64,000 nucleotides of DNA from Halodesulfurarchaeum sp. (GTDB taxonomy: Archaea > Halobacteriota > Halobacteria > Halobacteriales > Halobacteriaceae): NCBI GenBank assembly GCA_042216015.1, contig JBDGUI010000007.1:71437-135436 (forward strand). The letters are read 5' to 3'. Under the pieces are notes generated by a model that was not told the origin of the DNA, made no database searches, and saw only the letters and a program-made list of their open reading frames with translations. Positions 20,707 through 44,182 of this stretch are shown here, in pieces. How positions within the stretch are numbered: the stretch's first letter is position 1; each line of letters begins with the position of its first letter. Made by a program: the position numbers and the translations under genes.

Positions 20707-20939
20707 TGGTTGGCCCTCGATTCCATACTGTCACGACGTTCGCATGGCAACGGCTCGTCGGTCCGTAACCAGTCTGAGAACCGTCTTCGGTTGTCGGGCT
20801 GTGCGCGAACACTCGTGACCTTCTGGTATTTGCGTATATCCAAGCACTGTGATTAAGTGTTTCGCTGTGTCCGCGAACACTTTCACTTTCACTCCACACC
20901 TGGCTCGCATTGACGGGGTCTGGCTTCCAATCGTGAGCT

Positions 20940-37579: not shown

Positions 37580-38647
37580 TCAGCACACGAGGTCGGTCAG
37601 CGCCTCAGTGAGGATATCCACGGCTCGGCGCACGTCCTTCATCCGCACGTATTCCCGTTCGCTGTGCGCCACCGGCCCCTCCTCGTCGGAGAGGTCGCCG
37701 GGACCGAAAACCACGGTCGGGGCGATGTCGGCGAAGTAGGCCGCTTCGGTGGCCGCACCGAAGGGACGGGCGTCGCCAGCGCCTGCCTCGAGCAAGGCCA
37801 GGGAGACGGCAGAATCCGGGTCCGTCTCGAAACCGGAGAGAAACGGCGTGTCGCGCTCGGCCCGAGAAACCGTCACTTCGAGATCCTTCGACACCCGTTC
37901 TGCGAGGTGGCTCTCGAACGCCTCGAAGAATGCCGACTCGGTCTCCGGCGGGACGGTCCGCCGGTCGAAGGTCACCTCGACTGCCGCCGGGATCCGGTTA
38001 CCCGCCTCGCCCCCGGAGACGAGGGTGGGCGTCAGCGTCGGCGCGCCGAGCCGGGGATGGGCGTCGATACCCCGTTCCGTATCGTAGGTTTCCATTCCCT
38101 CGAGGACGGCTCTCAATCCCGAAATCGCGTTGACCCCCGCGTCCGGGTCGGCAGCGTGAGCGCCCTTCCCGTGCAGGCTGACGGTCCCCTGGAACCGACC
38201 CCGTGCGCCGATGCAGACGGCAAGCCCCGTGGGTTCGCCAACGATGAACCCATCGGCGGCAAGATCCAGCGCCGCGGCGCCGGTCGAAGCGCGCTCCTCG
38301 TCCGGCGTCACGACGAGGGTCACCCGACCTCGGGAGGGGTCCACCGCCAGAAATGCGGCCAGCATCGCCGCGAGGGGTCCCTTGGCGTCGCACGATCCGC
38401 GACCCCGGATTTCGTTCTCAGTGCGCTCGAGCGGGTGGTGGGGTGGCACGGTGTCCAGGTGCGTGTTGAGCACGATATGCGGATTGCCTGCCCCTCTCTC
38501 GGCGAGGACGTTTCCCAGTTCGTCGACCTGCGGATCGAGACCCGCCTCCTGTAGCGTGTCGACGAGCAACTCCCGCATCTCGTCCACGGACTCGTGAGAG
38601 GGCGTCTCGACGGCCGATTCGAGGAACTCGATGGGGTCGACACTCAT
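37580..38647 (-). CDS. dapE: M20 metallopeptidase, probable succinyl-diaminopimelate desuccinylase
   Basis: NTHLDTV, GRGSCDAKG, DEE, GEPT, AHS..E; last gene of the dap operon. Confidence 0.8.
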   Translation of the reverse strand: MSVDPIEFLESAVETPSHESVDEMRELLVDTLQEAGLDPQVDELGNVLAERGAGNPHIVLNTHLDTVPPHHPLERTENEIRGRGSCDAKGPLAAMLAAFLAVDPSRGRVTLVVTPDEERASTGAAALDLAADGFIVGEPTGLAVCIGARGRFQGTVSLHGKGAHAADPDAGVNAISGLRAVLEGMETYDTERGIDAHPRLGAPTLTPTLVSGGEAGNRIPAAVEVTFDRRTVPPETESAFFEAFESHLAERVSKDLEVTVSRAERDTPFLSGFETDPDSAVSLALLEAGAGDARPFGAATEAAYFADIAPTVVFGPGDLSDEEGPVAHSEREYVRMKDVRRAVDILTEALTDLVC

Positions 38648-39474
38648 TCGCTTCCCTTCGGATCGAACTTCCAGCTCCCCTCACTCTCGAAGACCGTCGG
38701 TCCCGAAAGCGTCGCCGGACCGTCCTCGGGGATCGTCACGTCGAGGGTGCCCCCGGGAGGTGTCACCTTCAGCACCTGTCCCGCCTCGACGAGCCCGAGT
38801 TTCGTCGCCACGGCGGCGATCGCCACAGCACCCGTTCCACAGGACTGGGTCTCGCCCTCGACCCCCCGCTCGTAGGTCCGCTGGCGAAAGGCCCTCGATC
38901 CGGTCTTTTCGGCGACTGTCACGTTCGTTCCCTCGGGGAACCGATCCGCGTAGCGGATCGGCTGGGCCGCAGCCTCCAGGTCGAGGTCATCGATCGAGTG
39001 GAGGAATGCGACGGCGTGGGGCACGCCGGTGTTTACGGCCGATACCGGCATCCCCTCGAAGGGCTCCTCGAGCATCGGTTCGTCCGCGTCGACCGGGACC
39101 CGGGCTGGATCGAAGGTCGGCTCGCCCATCTCGACGGTCACCTCGTCTTCAGCGTCGATGGATGTCCGTCGAGGGCCGGCCGGTGTTTCAAGCAGGAACG
39201 CCTCCTCATCGGTCCGCTCGTATGCCCAGCGTGCAGCCACCCGAGCGCCGTTCCCACACATGTCAGCCGTGCTGCCGTCGGGCTGGTACAGCCTGAACCT
39301 GACCCGACTCGGACTCGGCTCCGAGTCGAGGGAGAGGACGAGTATGCCGTCGATTCCGAGTTCGTCACAGAGCGAGACGGCAAACTCTCGTCGGCCGGAT
39401 TCGATCGTGTCCGCCTCGACGACGGCGAAGGAATTGCCGGTTCCGTGGTAGTGGCGGTAGGGTATCTCGGTCAT
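38644..39474 (-). CDS. dapF: Diaminopimelate epimerase
   Basis: HGTGN, DGS.ADMCGNGAR, TG.PH, TYERGVEGETQSCGTG. Confidence 0.95.
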   Translation of the reverse strand: MTEIPYRHYHGTGNSFAVVEADTIESGRREFAVSLCDELGIDGILVLSLDSEPSPSRVRFRLYQPDGSTADMCGNGARVAARWAYERTDEEAFLLETPAGPRRTSIDAEDEVTVEMGEPTFDPARVPVDADEPMLEEPFEGMPVSAVNTGVPHAVAFLHSIDDLDLEAAAQPIRYADRFPEGTNVTVAEKTGSRAFRQRTYERGVEGETQSCGTGAVAIAAVATKLGLVEAGQVLKVTPPGGTLDVTIPEDGPATLSGPTVFESEGSWKFDPKGSE

Positions 39475-40700
39475 GGCTGTTCGGGGGCGGTGATGGCTTC
39501 GAGTCGTTCACGACGCCGTATTCCTCTGGTGGTCCCGTCCTCGACGGCCACGACGGGGGCCCGCGGCCGGGAATTGTACTGGCTCGCCATCTCGATGCCG
39601 TAGGCGCCGGTCAGGCCAATTCCGAGCAGGTCACCTCTCCGTGGTTCGGGAAGGCGTCGATCGCGGGCGAGAACGTCCGTGCTCTCGCAGATCGGTCCCA
39701 CGACCGAGACCCTCTCGACCTCCCGTCTTGGGTCGTCGGCGAGACTCCTGACCGGGTGATAGGCGTCGTACAGGGCGGGTCGAAGGAGGTCGGTCATCCC
39801 CGCGTCGACGCCCGCGAGCATCGTGTCGCCGGCCGGTTTGACCGTGTTCACCTTCGTCAACAGGACGCCGGCGTCGGCGACGAGATAGCGGCCCGGCTCG
39901 ATCAGGACCTCCGTCGGGACCCCGTCGAGTGCGTCACGGACCGATTCGGCGATGGACTCGAGATCGAGCGGGCGCTCCTCCGGCCGATACGGAACGCCGA
40001 ACCCGCCGCCCACGTCGATGAAGTCGAGGTCGGCGTCCAGGTCGCTCGCCACTCGGGAGAGCGTTTCGAGAACCGCACGGTAGGATTCGAGATCCGACTC
40101 GTCGAGGATTCCGCTTCCCGCGTGTGCGTGGATACCCACGACAGCCATCCCCTGCGTGGTCGCCCGTTCGACCGCAGCCGGGACCCGATCGACCCCGATG
40201 CCGAACGTGGCGTCGGCCCCGGTTGCGACCGTCTCGCTGTGGCCCGCTCCAGTCCCTGGGTGGATCCGGACGGCGACGTCGCCGGTGAAATCGCGTTCGG
40301 CGAGGCGTTCGATGGTGTCCATCGCGCCGACGGTTATCGCCCGGAGGGACTCCCCGAATTCGAGAACTGCATCGAGGTCGCGATCGGGCGGATTGACCGG
40401 CGTGTAGAGCAGGGAATCCGTTGGGAACCCCCCGTCCAGGGCCCGTCTCACCTCGCCGGCGGACGCACATTCGGCGCCGATCCCCGTCCCGGCGATGGTC
40501 TCGAGGACTCCACGACCTGCGTTGGCCTTTACGGCGTAGTGAATTCCCGCCTCCGGGAACGCCTCCCGGACGCGATCGACGTTCTCGCGGATTCGATCCA
40601 GATCGACGACGTACGCCGGGGTTCCATACTCGTCCGCGATCCGGACGAGCCGGTCCCGGGGCCAGTCCGCAAGTCGACGGACCGGGGGCGTGTCACTCAT
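39471..40700 (-). CDS. lysA: Diaminopimelate decarboxylase
   Basis: YAVKAN, HAHAGS, DVGGGFG, EPGRY, GPICESTD, GAYG..MASQYN. Confidence 0.95.
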   Translation of the reverse strand: MSDTPPVRRLADWPRDRLVRIADEYGTPAYVVDLDRIRENVDRVREAFPEAGIHYAVKANAGRGVLETIAGTGIGAECASAGEVRRALDGGFPTDSLLYTPVNPPDRDLDAVLEFGESLRAITVGAMDTIERLAERDFTGDVAVRIHPGTGAGHSETVATGADATFGIGVDRVPAAVERATTQGMAVVGIHAHAGSGILDESDLESYRAVLETLSRVASDLDADLDFIDVGGGFGVPYRPEERPLDLESIAESVRDALDGVPTEVLIEPGRYLVADAGVLLTKVNTVKPAGDTMLAGVDAGMTDLLRPALYDAYHPVRSLADDPRREVERVSVVGPICESTDVLARDRRLPEPRRGDLLGIGLTGAYGIEMASQYNSRPRAPVVAVEDGTTRGIRRRERLEAITAPEQP

Positions 40701-41533
40701 GACTGTCTGAGTTCTGCTTCCCGCTGGGTCGCCTCGAGTGTCTCGACCTCGATGTCCATGGCCACCACCGCCGGTTTGTACGCGCCACCCTCGAAGAGTT
40801 CGTGATCGCCGACGCTCGACTCGACAAAGCGCGTGAACGCCCGTCGGTTCGGCGGGAGTTCGCCGTACCTGACTTCCCCCTCGACGAGGTCGTAGATGGG
40901 GATGCGGGGGGTCAACAGGGTGTTCTCCCCGACGACGCTCCCCTCGCCGACGACGAATCCCGAGGTGACCCGGGTGCCAGCCCCGAGTGAGACGTCGTCC
41001 TCGATGACGACCGGTGTGTCCTCGACGGGTTCGAGCACGCCACCGATGAGGGTATTCCCCCCCAACTTGACGTTGTCCCCGATCTGGGCACATGATCCGA
41101 CCGTATTCGCGGAGTCGACCAGGGTCCCATCGCCGATGTGGGCGCCGATGTTGACGAAGCTGGGGCTCATGAGGATCGCGTCGCTGCCGACGTATGCGCC
41201 CCGGCGGATGGTCGTTCCGTCGGGCGTGTTTCTGGTTCCGCGGTCGCCAAGATCCGCCGTCTCCCGCAGCGGAAGGACGTCGTGATAGGTCACGTCGCCG
41301 TAGGTTCGGGCCTCGGTGTCACGCAGCGAGAAGTTGAGCAGGATGCCGGTCTTCACCCATTCGACGGCCGTCCAGTCGCCGTTTCGGGGTTCGGCCGCCC
41401 GGATCTCGCCCGCTTCGAGGGCCCGAAGAAACGCGTCGAGGATCGCCATCTCGTCGGTGCCGGCGCTCTCGGGGGTGAGCGAACCGGATTCGTAGCGCTC
41501 CTGCACCTCGATGATATCGGCCTCGAGGCTCAT
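40697..41533 (-). CDS. dapD: Tetrahydrodipicolinate N-succinyltransferase
   Basis: WVK.GILL.F, PSFVNIGA, TVGSCAQIG, IGGVLEP hexapeptide repeats. Confidence 0.95.
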   Translation of the reverse strand: MSLEADIIEVQERYESGSLTPESAGTDEMAILDAFLRALEAGEIRAAEPRNGDWTAVEWVKTGILLNFSLRDTEARTYGDVTYHDVLPLRETADLGDRGTRNTPDGTTIRRGAYVGSDAILMSPSFVNIGAHIGDGTLVDSANTVGSCAQIGDNVKLGGNTLIGGVLEPVEDTPVVIEDDVSLGAGTRVTSGFVVGEGSVVGENTLLTPRIPIYDLVEGEVRYGELPPNRRAFTRFVESSVGDHELFEGGAYKPAVVAMDIEVETLEATQREAELRQS

Positions 41534-42333
41534 TCGTCACCTCCGGTCCGGGCGAGTTCGGACGCGACGTCGGAGAACCGATAGAATCCGGCGGGTTGCC
41601 CGAGCAACCATACGGCGGCATCGAGAGCCCCCTCTGCGAATACGGAGCGGGATCCGGCCCGGTGAGTTAGCGAGAGCGTTTCGCGATTCCCCGCGAGAAG
41701 AACCTCGTGCTCGCCGGTGACGTCGCCAGCGCGACGGGCGTGCACACCGATCTCGCCGGCCTCGCGTTTGGCATCGCCCTCGCGGCCGTACACCCGGTCG
41801 CCGGGTTCACCCCGCGCGTCGTCGATTCGGTCGAGGATCAGCGAGGCCGTCCCCGAGGGGGCATCGCGCTTTCCGTTGTGGTGGGTTTCGGTGAGTTCCA
41901 CGTCGTAGGCCGGGAGCGAGGCAACGGCCGTTTCCACGGCGTCGATCAGTGCCTGCACGCCCCTGGCGAAATTCGCTCCGAGCAGGACCGGGATTTCCGC
42001 TCCCGCGGCTTCGATTGCCGATCGCTGTGCCTCCGCAAAGCCAGTCGTGCCGGTCACGACCGGGACGCCGGCCTCGGCTGCGGCCTGCACGTATTCCACG
42101 CAGCTCTCCGGCCCCGTGAAGTCGACGATGACGTCCGGGTCGGTTTCGGCGAGGAGGGCCTCATACCGGTGAGCCGGTTCGACGTCCGTGAGGTTCGGGT
42201 CGGCGTCACGATTGACGGCGAAGGCGATCTCCATCCCTCGCCGCGTCGCGGCTTCCCGAACCTCCTGACCCATCCGTCCGGTTGCCCCAGTGACCCCGAT
42301 CCGTGCCCCGGGGTCCGATTCGTGTCCGCTCAT
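41530..42333 (-). CDS. dapB: 4-hydroxy-tetrahydrodipicolinate reductase
   Basis: GATGRMG, DFT, GTTG, ETHHNGKRDAPSGTA, GEH.V, FAEGA. Confidence 0.95.
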   Translation of the reverse strand: MSGHESDPGARIGVTGATGRMGQEVREAATRRGMEIAFAVNRDADPNLTDVEPAHRYEALLAETDPDVIVDFTGPESCVEYVQAAAEAGVPVVTGTTGFAEAQRSAIEAAGAEIPVLLGANFARGVQALIDAVETAVASLPAYDVELTETHHNGKRDAPSGTASLILDRIDDARGEPGDRVYGREGDAKREAGEIGVHARRAGDVTGEHEVLLAGNRETLSLTHRAGSRSVFAEGALDAAVWLLGQPAGFYRFSDVASELARTGGDE

Positions 42334-43223
42334 GTGGACTGTTCGGCCGCCAGTTCGTCGAGAATCGATTCGAGGTGATCGCGATTCGACGGATCGATGG
42401 TCGAGAGCGGCGAGCGCACCTGTCCCGGCCCGTAGCCACGGATCTCCATTGCGGCCTTCACCGGAATCGGGTTGGTCTCGACGAACAGCGCGTCGAAGAG
42501 CGGCGCGAGTTCCCGGTGGACCTCGCGGGCGTGTTCCCAGTCGCCTTCGAGGGCGCTCCAGACGAGATCGGACACCCGCTCCGGCTCCACGTTGCCGGCG
42601 ACGCTGATCACGCCGGTTCCCCCGACCGAGAGGATGGGGAGGGTCAACCCGTCGTCGCCGGAGAGGACGGAGAACTCCTCCTCGACCGTGCGTCTGGCGA
42701 CCTCCGAGACGCGGTTGAGGTCGCCGCTCGCGGCCTTGTAGCCCACGATATTCTCGTGGCTCGCCAGGTTCGCGGCGGTGTCGACGGCGATGTTTCGACC
42801 GGTCCGTGAGGGGACGTTGTAGATGATCTGGGGGAGGTCGATCTCGTCGGCGATGGCGCGGTAGTGGGCCTCCATGCCCGCCGGTTCGGGCTTGTTGTAG
42901 TACGGCGAGATGAGGAGCAAGGCGTCGGCTCCGGCCTCCTTGGCGCCTCTCGAGAGAGCGATCGCCTCGTGGGTCGCATTGCTTCCCGAGCCGGCGATGA
43001 CTGGGACGTCGACGGCTTCGACGACTGTTTCCACGACGTCGACGTGCTCCTGGTGGGTGAGCGTCGCGCTCTCGCCGGTCGACCCGACGGGAACGAGTCC
43101 GTCGACTCCCGACTCTTCGAGGCGAGTCGCGTCCCGGGCGAGTTGATCGTGATCGATACTCCCGTCGTCGAGAAACGGCGTCGTCATCGCGGGGAAGACG
43201 CCGGTCGTCATGTCCTGTGTCAT
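42330..43223 (-). CDS. dapA: 4-hydroxy-tetrahydrodipicolinate synthase
   Basis: TPF, GSTGE, PYYNKP, YNVP.RTG, GYK, SGDD, ETNPIPVK. Confidence 0.96.
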   Translation of the reverse strand: MTQDMTTGVFPAMTTPFLDDGSIDHDQLARDATRLEESGVDGLVPVGSTGESATLTHQEHVDVVETVVEAVDVPVIAGSGSNATHEAIALSRGAKEAGADALLLISPYYNKPEPAGMEAHYRAIADEIDLPQIIYNVPSRTGRNIAVDTAANLASHENIVGYKAASGDLNRVSEVARRTVEEEFSVLSGDDGLTLPILSVGGTGVISVAGNVEPERVSDLVWSALEGDWEHAREVHRELAPLFDALFVETNPIPVKAAMEIRGYGPGQVRSPLSTIDPSNRDHLESILDELAAEQST

Positions 43224-43376
43224 CGGTGTGGGGTGTCGTGGTGGCAGTTGGTGGGTGTGGTACGTAATCGGTTCGACCACGGATCGAGCACTGGTCCCCG
43301 AGCCGCAGGAACACAGTGCCGTGGATTGGCGCCGAAAAGGGGCCCGAAACGGGGTCCGAACCCGCCACGAGCCATG

Positions 43377-43454
43377 CTACCGTTTCCCGCGTTTGCCGAA
43401 GCACCGAAACTCGCCCGCCGACCCACCGGAACCGTCGCCGGAAGCGAGTGTCAT
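43377..43454 (-). promoter_or_regulatory. Putative leader peptide of the lysine operon (MTLASGDGSGGSAGEFRCFGKRGKR)
   Basis: ATG 43454 to TAG 43377, same strand as dapA; two AAA Lys codons within the last five sense codons. Confidence 0.55.
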
Positions 43455-43540
43455 GTGGAAAAGCTTGTAGTCGAGACGTATAGCTGTTGTGGGCGCTCCT
43501 GTCGGCCAGCTTTTGTGGGTGCCCCTCGAAGGGCCGAATG

Positions 43541-44182
43541 ATGCTTGTGCTGGGTGACGCCCACGCGAACACGCCCGAACGACGACGGGCGCTCGAGCGG
43601 GCCTATGGGGAGACGGACGCAACCGTCGCCCTCCAGCTCGGCGATCTCTTCACCTACGATCTCCCCGCCGAGACGTACTTCATCGCGGGAAACAACGAGG
43701 ACTTCGACGTCATCGACGCCCTGCGCCACGGGCGGATCCGCAGTCGGGACGTGCGGAACGCGAGACTGCTCGACAGTCGAACCGTCGAGATCCGGGGACT
43801 GACCGTCGGTGGGTTGTCCGGGAACTACGCGCCGACCCAGTACGACAAACCCCGGTCGGCCCTCAGGGGGGAGCGTCGCCGGCACTTCGTCCGGGCCGAC
43901 GTGGAGCAACTGAAACGGGTCGGAGCGGTGGACGTGCTGCTCACCCACGAGGCCCCGCATGGCACGGACGTCGCAGAGGAGTACAGCGTCGGCTGTCGGC
44001 CGATCGACGACCTGCTCGAGGCACTCTCTCCGGCGCTGCATCTCGTTGGCCACCACCACCAGCACACCGAGACGACGGTCGGGGACACGCGGGTCATCAC
44101 GGTGGCCCCGGCCTGGGAGTGTTACTACGAACTCGACCCGGCGACCCTCGAACTGTCTCGGTACCAGACACCCGAGGGCTGA
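43541..44182 (+). CDS. Calcineurin-like metallophosphoesterase
   Basis: GDAH, LGD, AGNNE, THEAP, GHHH. Confidence 0.88.
   Translation: MLVLGDAHANTPERRRALERAYGETDATVALQLGDLFTYDLPAETYFIAGNNEDFDVIDALRHGRIRSRDVRNARLLDSRTVEIRGLTVGGLSGNYAPTQYDKPRSALRGERRRHFVRADVEQLKRVGAVDVLLTHEAPHGTDVAEEYSVGCRPIDDLLEALSPALHLVGHHHQHTETTVGDTRVITVAPAWECYYELDPATLELSRYQTPEG

Follow-up and report, generated by a model that had tools for sequence, protein, structure and literature searches.

A conserved short reading frame with lysine codons near its end precedes dapA across the Halobacteria: a candidate lysine-sensing leader peptide

Does the short open reading frame (ORF) that precedes the lysine operon of Halodesulfurarchaeum sp. 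encode a leader peptide through which ribosomes gauge the supply of lysine? The question is raised by a stretch of 64,000 nucleotides (nt) from contig JBDGUI010000007.1 (assembly GCA_042216015.1), hereafter the window, in which the genes dapA-dapB-dapD-lysA-dapF-dapE are preceded on the same strand by a promoter-to-dapA leader of 231 bases. An earlier note, made from the letters of this DNA alone, had drawn attention to a 25-codon ORF in this leader whose only two Lys codons sit just before the stop, and had proposed that ribosomes pausing at these codons control either termination or the translation of dapA. The coordinates of the ORF and the Pfam matches of the six genes agree with that description, and the two Lys codons, a T-run, a C/A-rich stretch and the dapA ATG at 43223 are all seen in the sequence. 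From the comparison of related loci and the data available for Haloferax volcanii we conclude that the leader is probably a lysine-tRNA-sensing leader peptide of the lysine (diaminopimelate) operon that is read by the ribosome.

In the window the upstream ORF (uORF) runs on the reverse strand from an ATG at 43454-43452 to a TAG at 43379-43377, and its pair of AAA codons are the only Lys codons of the peptide (Table 1). The TATA-like box CTATAC lies 28-29 nt ahead of this ATG, which is the usual spacing of leaderless haloarchaeal genes and predicts a leaderless transcript. Beyond the uORF come a hairpin, called T hereafter, a T-run, further structure that is not conserved and a C/A-rich spacer that reaches dapA. 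Taken on its own, the window shows no leader feature above chance. Its GC content is 65% and 80 ORFs of at least 60 residues were found within 12 kb, so that open frames of this size are commonplace. Two Lys in 24 codons are expected with P ~0.07 at the 1.8% Lys of the genome, hairpin T (-19.8 kcal/mol, z = -1.48) is equalled by 18 of 200 shuffled sequences, and the fold of the whole leader has z = +0.25. It is conservation in other genomes that lifts the leader above chance.

To compare related loci we scanned one genome per species with the DapA protein, which gave 483 relatives, and analyzed the 80 best-matching loci (65-90% identity), which range from Halodesulfurarchaeum, the closest, to Halorubrum, Natrinema, Halococcus and Haloquadratum. 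An equivalent leader precedes dapA in 77 of the 80, so that the conserved short ORF ending in K-x-x-K-R anticipated by the earlier note is indeed there. In these 77 loci and in the window (together the 78 leaders counted below) the parts follow one order: B recognition element (BRE) and TATA box, ATG or GTG, short ORF, K-x(0-2)-K-R, stop codon and hairpin T. Of the three loci that lack it, two lie on contigs that end early (L003 and L072), and in the third (L056) the element is absent. The uORFs start with ATG (58) or GTG (20) about 25-29 nt after the BRE/TATA, are all in frame despite 17 different lengths between 16 and 46 codons (mode 24-25) and end with TAG (34), TGA (33) or TAA (11). Phe-Ser often stands ahead of the C-terminal K-x(0-2)-K-R, and the N-terminal two thirds of the peptide show no conservation.

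Because the uORFs had been selected by requiring Lys or KR near their end, we also ran a frame test that does not depend on the ORFs; this test and the alignment columns are the independent evidence. A start codon was sought 26-32 nt downstream of a TATA-like pentamer with a regular expression. Such a candidate was found in 56 of the 78 leaders, and in all 56 a candidate shares the frame of the alignment's invariant A in the Lys codon (57, 2 and 9 candidates in the three frames relative to this A). The first A of the Lys codon is the sole invariant column of the leader region, and 72 of the 78 rows read AAACG (65) or AAGCG (7) there. Within the peptides 156 of 157 Lys fall in the last 18 residues, which leaves 1 among the 806 residues outside, and 59 of the 78 leaders have exactly two. 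These Lys codons are AAA in 137 cases and AAG in 20 (87% AAA), to be compared with a genome-wide AAA share of 26%; the genome of the window has one tRNA-Lys(UUU) and one tRNA-Lys(CUU) gene. Some leaders (L037, L064 and L076) use AAG only, which indicates that the kept feature is the amino acid or the codon family and not a run of A.

We also considered whether the uORF might be joined to dapA by an unusual decoding event. In the window the uORF and dapA (43454-43221, reverse strand) share a reading frame with only the TAG between them, as they do in H. volcanii, where the stop is UGA. The frame relation of the two in 74 leaders, however, is 30/24/20, so that the shared frame is probably a coincidence, and a read-through fusion was rejected. 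The alternative frames are open to the dapA ATGA in 22 and 22 of 79 leaders with no constant direction, and there are early stops in H. volcanii; a frameshift at hungry codons into the frame ending at this ATGA was therefore rejected. A programmed frameshift or read-through site is not seen either, as in many leaders, including that of the window, the AAA codons are separated and form no slippery run. A further frame was observed in the window at 43375-43220 (reverse strand), where an ATG one base past the uORF stop opens 51 codons across hairpin T and the spacer, up to a TGA that shares bases with the start codon of dapA (ATGA).

Hairpin T is supported by covariation. In the 78 leaders 94% of cells are paired and 8 of the 11 pairs show compensatory changes, a result matched by 0 of 500 shuffles, and partners slid out of register pair in only 38-57%. 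One G.U pair and the adjacent C-G pair are invariant. The position of T relative to the Lys codons is conserved as well: from the first base of the last Lys codon to the first paired base of T there are 15-17 nt in 59 of the 78 leaders (range 9-24), and while the K-R motif stands at a variable distance from the stop codon (0-13 codons), its distance to T is fixed. In 78 of 78 the stop codon is placed from 10 nt ahead of T to 15 nt within it. The H. volcanii ribosome protects 27 nt, 12 nt on the 5' side and 15-16 nt on the 3' side of the P-site codon (Gelsinger 2020). A ribosome holding the last Lys codon thus has its front edge where T starts, and with each further step it invades T. In constrained folds T keeps at least 8 base pairs in 59 of the 78 leaders if the ribosome is placed on the first Lys codon, and in 5 of the 78 if it is placed on the stop codon.

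Other structures were examined and set aside. A classical 3:4 terminator was rejected, since the 3' arm of T pairs with the next 45 nt no better than in shuffled controls. A duplex of the Lys-codon stretch with sequence 3' of T has z < -2 in 25% of the leaders and z = -3.7 in that of H. volcanii; with a median z of -0.83 and a window z of +0.56 it was dropped as a general switch. Unmasking of the dapA start site by a stalled ribosome was likewise abandoned, as the in silico accessibility of this site in the 78 leaders does not change.

To determine how widespread the element is we built a covariance model of the Lys-codon region and hairpin T and accepted matches at E <=0.01. It matched 144 of the 151 sampled genomes of the class, in 56 of 57 genera, nearly always as a single copy. 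Sampling of the phylum gave matches in 16 of 18 genomes of the window's order (its own genome excluded) and in none of 132 genomes of other families. The assembly of the window itself (1.68 Mb, 87% complete) contains the window site and only one other match, at E = 0.44. Five of the seven class genomes that had no match were inspected (all but G108 and G124). One has only a 36%-identical paralogue and thus no dapA, and has no element. In two the element is divergent, with Lys codons and a variant of the hairpin, and was missed by the filters of the model. The other two, of genus g8 (~2 Mb), have dapA and no model match; at one locus of this genus (L084, G026:C4) dapA follows its own TATA-like box after about 25 nt with no leader between, which from the sequence looks like natural loss or absence of the leader. 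The element always stands before dapA in the loci examined. Further copies before other lysine genes were considered and discarded, because the six weak second matches lie in coding-looking sequence, for example at the C-terminus of a conserved protein. Rfam 15 gave no match (E <=10) in the window at 42800-43900, save three chance matches elsewhere, and none in the leaders of 6 related loci at E <=1, the L box lysine riboswitch included.

The element can be followed in H. volcanii: one genome of our set (G028) has a model match at 1006646-1006732, with a sequence that agrees letter for letter with the H. volcanii sequence of published tables. The transcription start map of Babski 2016 (PMC4983044, supplement row 1078) lists a primary start at 1006790 on the reverse strand with a coverage of 854.6 and a TATA box at -28, and this position is the first base of the GTG of the homologous uORF. 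Nearby the same map lists only a weak internal sense start at 1006570 (coverage 17.8) and a weak antisense start at 1006631 (coverage 12.8). The sole strong start is therefore at the uORF and not downstream of it, in keeping with the earlier note. The transcript from 1006790 is labelled in that supplement as a previously known RNA, the small RNA (sRNA) HVO_1101s, and dapA is absent from the paper's table of 16 uORFs in long 5' untranslated regions. The supplement of Hadjeras 2023 (PMC10117724, row 5460) contains the ORF 1006790-1006704, from GTG to TGA, with the peptide VNDATRPSQVTTPSTASRAAFFSKKRAY; dapA and HVO_1101 go unmentioned in the main text of that paper. For this ORF it gives ribosome footprint values of 310, 139 and 532 reads per kilobase per million (RPKM) and RNA values of 712, 668 and 888 RPKM, and for dapA RNA values of 16, 85 and 64 RPKM, all from cells in YPC rich medium. 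Leader RNA thus exceeds dapA RNA 8-44 fold as an RPKM ratio in this medium. The examined supplement of Gelsinger 2020 has no entry for the leader locus, and other tables of that paper might list the ORF.

As for the 3' ends, the only RNA end that Berkemer 2020 (PMC7237163) places nearby is 1006572, 18 nt inside dapA. We also mapped two raw RNA runs of 2026 (X23 and X24, growth conditions unspecified) on the locus. Upstream of the uORF the depth is 2-9. In X24 it is about 1000-1200 along the leader, stays level through and past T, is about 250 at the dapA ATG and 245-470 within dapA; in X23 it is 66-235 in the leader and 25-47 in dapA, then 1-3. Depth drops 2.5- to 7-fold at the dapA ATG, and adapter-bearing read ends gather 1-9 nt before it; transcripts end about 55-110 nt past T. 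In H. volcanii, then, the uORF opens the transcript, ribosome-sized fragments map to it, and most of the transcripts made in lysine-rich medium end where the C/A-rich spacer does and not at T. Of the earlier note's proposals, control of termination fits the excess of leader RNA and the 3' ends near the dapA start; the ccccTTTTc run as the terminator is doubtful, as H. volcanii shows no depth fall after the hairpin and the longest T-run within 20 nt after T has at least 4 T in only 16 of the 78 leaders (at most 1 in 29). The note had also looked to ribosome occupancy, and footprints of 139-532 RPKM on the uORF fit this part, qualified by the low scores of the ORF callers given below. As an observation apart, depth in X23 is 2-5 times greater over the 3', C/A-rich portion of the leader (L088, G028:C1, 1006-1050) than over its 5' portion, which suggests a stable spacer fragment.

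Starting from the conserved anatomy, reading frame, spacing and hairpin, and in H. volcanii also from the start, the footprint reads, the leader excess and the 3' ends, we infer a mechanism. Its parts are that ribosomes stall at the Lys codons, that T acts positively, which sign the response takes and which factor terminates transcription. Transcription would begin at the A of the uORF ATG, and a ribosome would load immediately on the 5' end. Near the end of the uORF it would meet the two AAA codons; AAA is the less used Lys codon, and the single tRNA-Lys(UUU) is presumably its main reader. If the ribosome has to wait there for Lys-tRNA, T would fold once transcribed, directly behind the polymerase; if it moves on to the stop codon, it would invade the 5' arm of T and hold T open while the polymerase enters the untranslated C/A-rich spacer. 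A waiting ribosome thus means a folded T and a running ribosome an open one, and with negative feedback T must be the "on" structure. When lysine is scarce, the folded T close behind the polymerase would favour read-through into dapA. When lysine is plentiful, T would be open, the ribosome would be released, the polymerase would cross a naked spacer and transcripts would end just before or at the dapA start. Termination would probably be factor-dependent and Rho-like (FttA/aCPSF1) and would occur before a ribosome can load at dapA. Folded T would protect the polymerase and might do so by closing the entry site of the factor or by being recognized through its invariant pairs.

Several points weigh against this reading. 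Lys in 78 of 78 uORFs is partly so by construction, given how they were picked, and the kinship of the genomes makes the counts overstate their independence. There are only two Lys codons, and 10 of the 78 leaders have a single Lys, a low number compared with his or leu leaders. T would refold after the ribosome leaves, so that any effect must be kinetic. If T together with the T-run of the window served as a terminator, the sign would be inverted. RNA depth in H. volcanii does not fall after T. The search for a conserved alternative partner of the 3' arm of T in the next 45 nt found none, with 7.3 paired bases against 6.6 in shuffled controls. A hairpin within the uORF, with modest support (median z = -1.36, 35% of leaders below -2, window z = +0.08), was rejected. 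The mean unpaired probability of the dapA start region in the 78 leaders was 0.62 in the free RNA, 0.64 with the ribosome at Lys and 0.63 at the stop codon, which gives no in silico support to the earlier note's other proposal, control through access to the dapA start. Translation of the H. volcanii uORF is also less than secure: it has DeepRibo rank 7996 with a score of -1.69 and an empty REPARATION column in the supplement of Hadjeras 2023 (PMC10117724), its translation efficiency is 0.2-0.6, and because the RNA is abundant and structured the footprint reads need not be ribosomal. Finally, no published data relating the leader or dapA expression to lysine were found in our literature search, and a Natrinema paper on the lysine pathway yielded no lysine-regulation data.

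The main rival keeps the coupling and inverts it, in the manner of pyrBI: T and a U-rich tract would pause or terminate the polymerase, a ribosome at the end of the uORF would melt T and allow read-through, and reading of the operon would require prompt translation of the uORF. The geometry fits this equally well, as the terminating ribosome overlaps T in 78 of 78 leaders and T of at least 8 base pairs survives in only 5 of them with the ribosome at the stop codon; the window moreover has its T-run 2 nt after T, and 16 leaders have runs of at least 4. We regard it as unlikely, since a shortage of Lys-tRNA would then turn lysine synthesis off, which is physiologically implausible for a biosynthetic operon, since the T-run is not conserved, and since in rich medium, where the H. 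volcanii uORF should be freely readable, RNA does not fall at T and most transcripts nevertheless end before dapA. The peptide itself might instead be the effector, either as an arrest peptide (compare TnaC, SpeFL and the fungal arginine attenuator peptide) that senses free lysine at the uORF end, or through a basic K/R tail, made only with lysine available, that binds hairpin T and shuts the operon off, as arginine-rich peptides bind boxB or TAR. The conserved end does hold Arg besides Lys and often Phe-Ser ahead, the peptides are strongly basic (326 Arg and 157 Lys in 2208 residues), and the invariant G.U and C-G pairs and the constrained loop of T are what a specific binding site would show. 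Yet the 0-13 codons between K-R and the stop are unlike the fixed sites of arrest peptides, the rest of the peptide is unconserved, the conserved Phe-Ser and Arg codons could equally be constraints on the RNA, and a high-salt cytoplasm disfavours electrostatic binding of peptide to RNA; we consider a peptide effector quite unlikely.

That the element is RNA only, a riboswitch or a protein-binding leader in which the frame and the Lys codons are incidental to an A-rich motif, seems very unlikely to us. Conservation of AAACG at the nucleotide level in 65 of the 78 rows, the ability of the A-rich stretch to pair with U-rich sequence after T in some lineages (the z < -2 quarter and H. volcanii above) and the cataloguing of the H. 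volcanii transcript as an sRNA would all suit it. Such an element would not explain why uORFs of 17 different lengths keep the frame and all 56 testable leaders have a start codon where the transcript begins, nor why AAG replaces AAA in 20 codons, including the leaders free of AAA; the A-to-U pairing is not general, and no Rfam family was found in the window or the 6 related loci. An independent gene for a small protein or an sRNA, with dapA controlled separately by, for example, a second promoter or a DNA-binding regulator, we judge highly improbable. The window does contain a second TATA-like sequence, ATTACGTA (43261-43268, reverse strand), about 40 nt ahead of the dapA ATG, which could be a promoter independent of the leader, and the leader RNA of H. 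volcanii builds up as an RNA species of its own. In that organism, however, no transcription start matches the ATTACGTA box of the window and no strong one lies between the uORF and dapA; there is only the weak internal start at 1006570. The element occurs once per genome, always before dapA in the loci examined and with its weak second matches inside coding regions, and the genome without dapA is also without the element. We retain the ribosome-read, lysine-sensing leader peptide as the probable reading.

A bolder version of this reading, which taken as a whole we think rather doubtful, would make the element a switch of the whole class Halobacteria. A leaderless peptide would read the charging of tRNA-Lys(UUU), and the hairpin, able to form only in front of a waiting ribosome, would be a cis antiterminator that shields the elongation complex from FttA/aCPSF1 over an untranslated C/A-rich runway, with the invariant G.U and C-G pairs as its recognition site and an output that has no bacterial counterpart. 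Together with the uORFs before pheST and trpS it would form an archaeal "ribulon" of gauges for amino acids. Table 2 of Babski 2016 (PMC4983044) lists uORFs of 23 and 26 codons before HVO_A0127 (trpS) and HVO_2948 (pheS), which may form one regulatory class with the lysine leader. A crude scan of the window's own genome for other leaderless uORFs with cognate codons gave nothing convincing; even the lysine leader escaped it, since the TATA threshold had been set too high and a pair of Lys codons was too few for the enrichment test to register. A GTG-started small ORF of the window, MFRCVREHFHFHSTPGSH (20856-20912, forward strand), has four His in 18 residues and stands behind an AT-rich box; a small Cys-x2-Cys ORF from 20931 onward and then a gene of 139 residues lie downstream. 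No tie of this ORF to histidine genes was seen, and it was dropped as a further cognate-codon leader.

The features of the window locus are collected in Table 1. The operon was recognized from Pfam domains of all six genes (DHDPS, DapB_N/C, THDPS_N_2 with Hexapep, Orn/DAP decarboxylase, DAP_epimerase and, at the dapE position, an M20 peptidase), with dapA itself at 43223-42330. The longest open frame of lysA (540 residues, 39471-41093, reverse strand) overlaps dapD by about 400 nt; its Pfam domains begin only at residue 165, so that the true start is probably near 40700. On the other side a divergent metallophosphoesterase gene begins at 43541 on the forward strand, which leaves an intergenic region of 317 bases with two back-to-back promoters.

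Table 1 Features of the leader and operon in the window
Feature	Position	Strand	Description	Basis
TATA-like box CTATAC	43478..43483	-	Leader promoter, preceded by an A-rich, BRE-like acaaca	Sequence reading
Leaderless uORF	43377..43454	-	25 codons and TAG, encodes MTLASGDGSGGSAGEFRCFGKRGKR*	Sequence and homologous uORFs
Two Lys codons	43383..43394	-	AAA 43394-43392 and AAA 43385-43383, each followed by an Arg codon	Sequence
Hairpin T	43341..43373	-	GGCTC(g t)GGCGGG - loop TTCGGAC - CCCGTT(t c)GGGCC	Fold and covariation
T-run (ccTTTTc)	43335..43338	-	2 bases 3' of hairpin T; not conserved	Sequence
C/A-rich spacer	43224..43260	-	Poor in G and T, reaches the dapA start codon	Sequence; comparable stretches before dapA in the related loci printed
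Operon dapA-dapB-dapD-lysA-dapF-dapE	37580..43223	-		Pfam matches, all six genes

The element is conserved, in single copy, on an essential biosynthetic operon, and it is present in the genetically tractable H. volcanii, for which start, footprint and 3'-end data exist. In that organism ribosome gating of an archaeal RNA polymerase, the termination route (FttA/aCPSF1) and a positive-acting hairpin become testable. If our reading is true, it would account for the abundant sRNA catalogued upstream of dapA and could supply a lysine-responsive expression element for haloarchaeal genetics. In line with the earlier note, which knew of no characterized archaeal lysine attenuator of this kind, our literature search found no description of a lysine leader element or of leader-peptide attenuation in any archaeon, some supplementary tables lying outside the search. 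The words "leader peptide" and "attenuat" are absent from the accessible text of a 2026 review of termination signals across domains (PMC13675443). What was already known, as far as the accessible parts of the two sources go, is the transcript only as a catalogued sRNA and the ORF only as a low-ranked supplementary row (PMC4983044, PMC10117724). The leader looks like a lysine gauge of a type that has until now been reported from bacteria alone.

In bacteria leader-peptide attenuation is a textbook mechanism that relies on coupled transcription and translation. The haloarchaeal leader resembles the enterobacterial attenuators (trpL, hisL, leuL, thrL and pheL) in its translated leader ORF with codons for the end product just before the stop, in that the position of the lead ribosome would pick the RNA structure, and in the short leader transcript when the amino acid is plentiful. 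It differs from them in its TATA/BRE promoter and leaderless start with no Shine-Dalgarno sequence, in that no terminator/antiterminator pair was identified in it and the archaeal termination machinery is different, and in that H. volcanii transcripts end about 55-110 nt past the hairpin. The amino acid, lysine, is different too; we know of no lysine leader peptide in bacteria. The bacterial lysine riboswitch, or L box, also lies in the leader of lysine biosynthesis genes and gives a short terminated leader RNA when lysine is abundant. It is, however, a large RNA that binds lysine directly with no translation, whereas the haloarchaeal element is one hairpin and an ORF with no Rfam match.

A further likeness is to Rho-dependent attenuation gated by a uORF, of which mgtL-mgtA and tnaC are bacterial cases; Archaea, to our knowledge, are without Rho. 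As reviewed in the accessible text of PMC13675443, thiM and uORFs of M. tuberculosis share with the haloarchaeal leader an untranslated C-rich, G-poor stretch after a short ORF and a distant site of termination. In the leader FttA/aCPSF1 may have a role in this termination. The leaderless polycysteine small ORFs of mycobacteria (the "Cys ribulon", Canestrari et al., bioRxiv 10.1101/834739), as far as that source was available, are alike in being a leaderless first cistron with ribosome pausing at cognate codons in a high-GC genome. The haloarchaeal leader differs from them in having two Lys codons instead of a Cys tract and in belonging to an archaeon. In the mycobacterial type the stalled ribosome frees a downstream start site, whereas the accessibility of dapA was unchanged in silico and the step seen in H. 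volcanii is the formation of an RNA 3' end. In all, we rate the leader as leader-peptide logic carried into a new domain and to a new amino acid; its start is leaderless and its output unlike the bacterial pattern.

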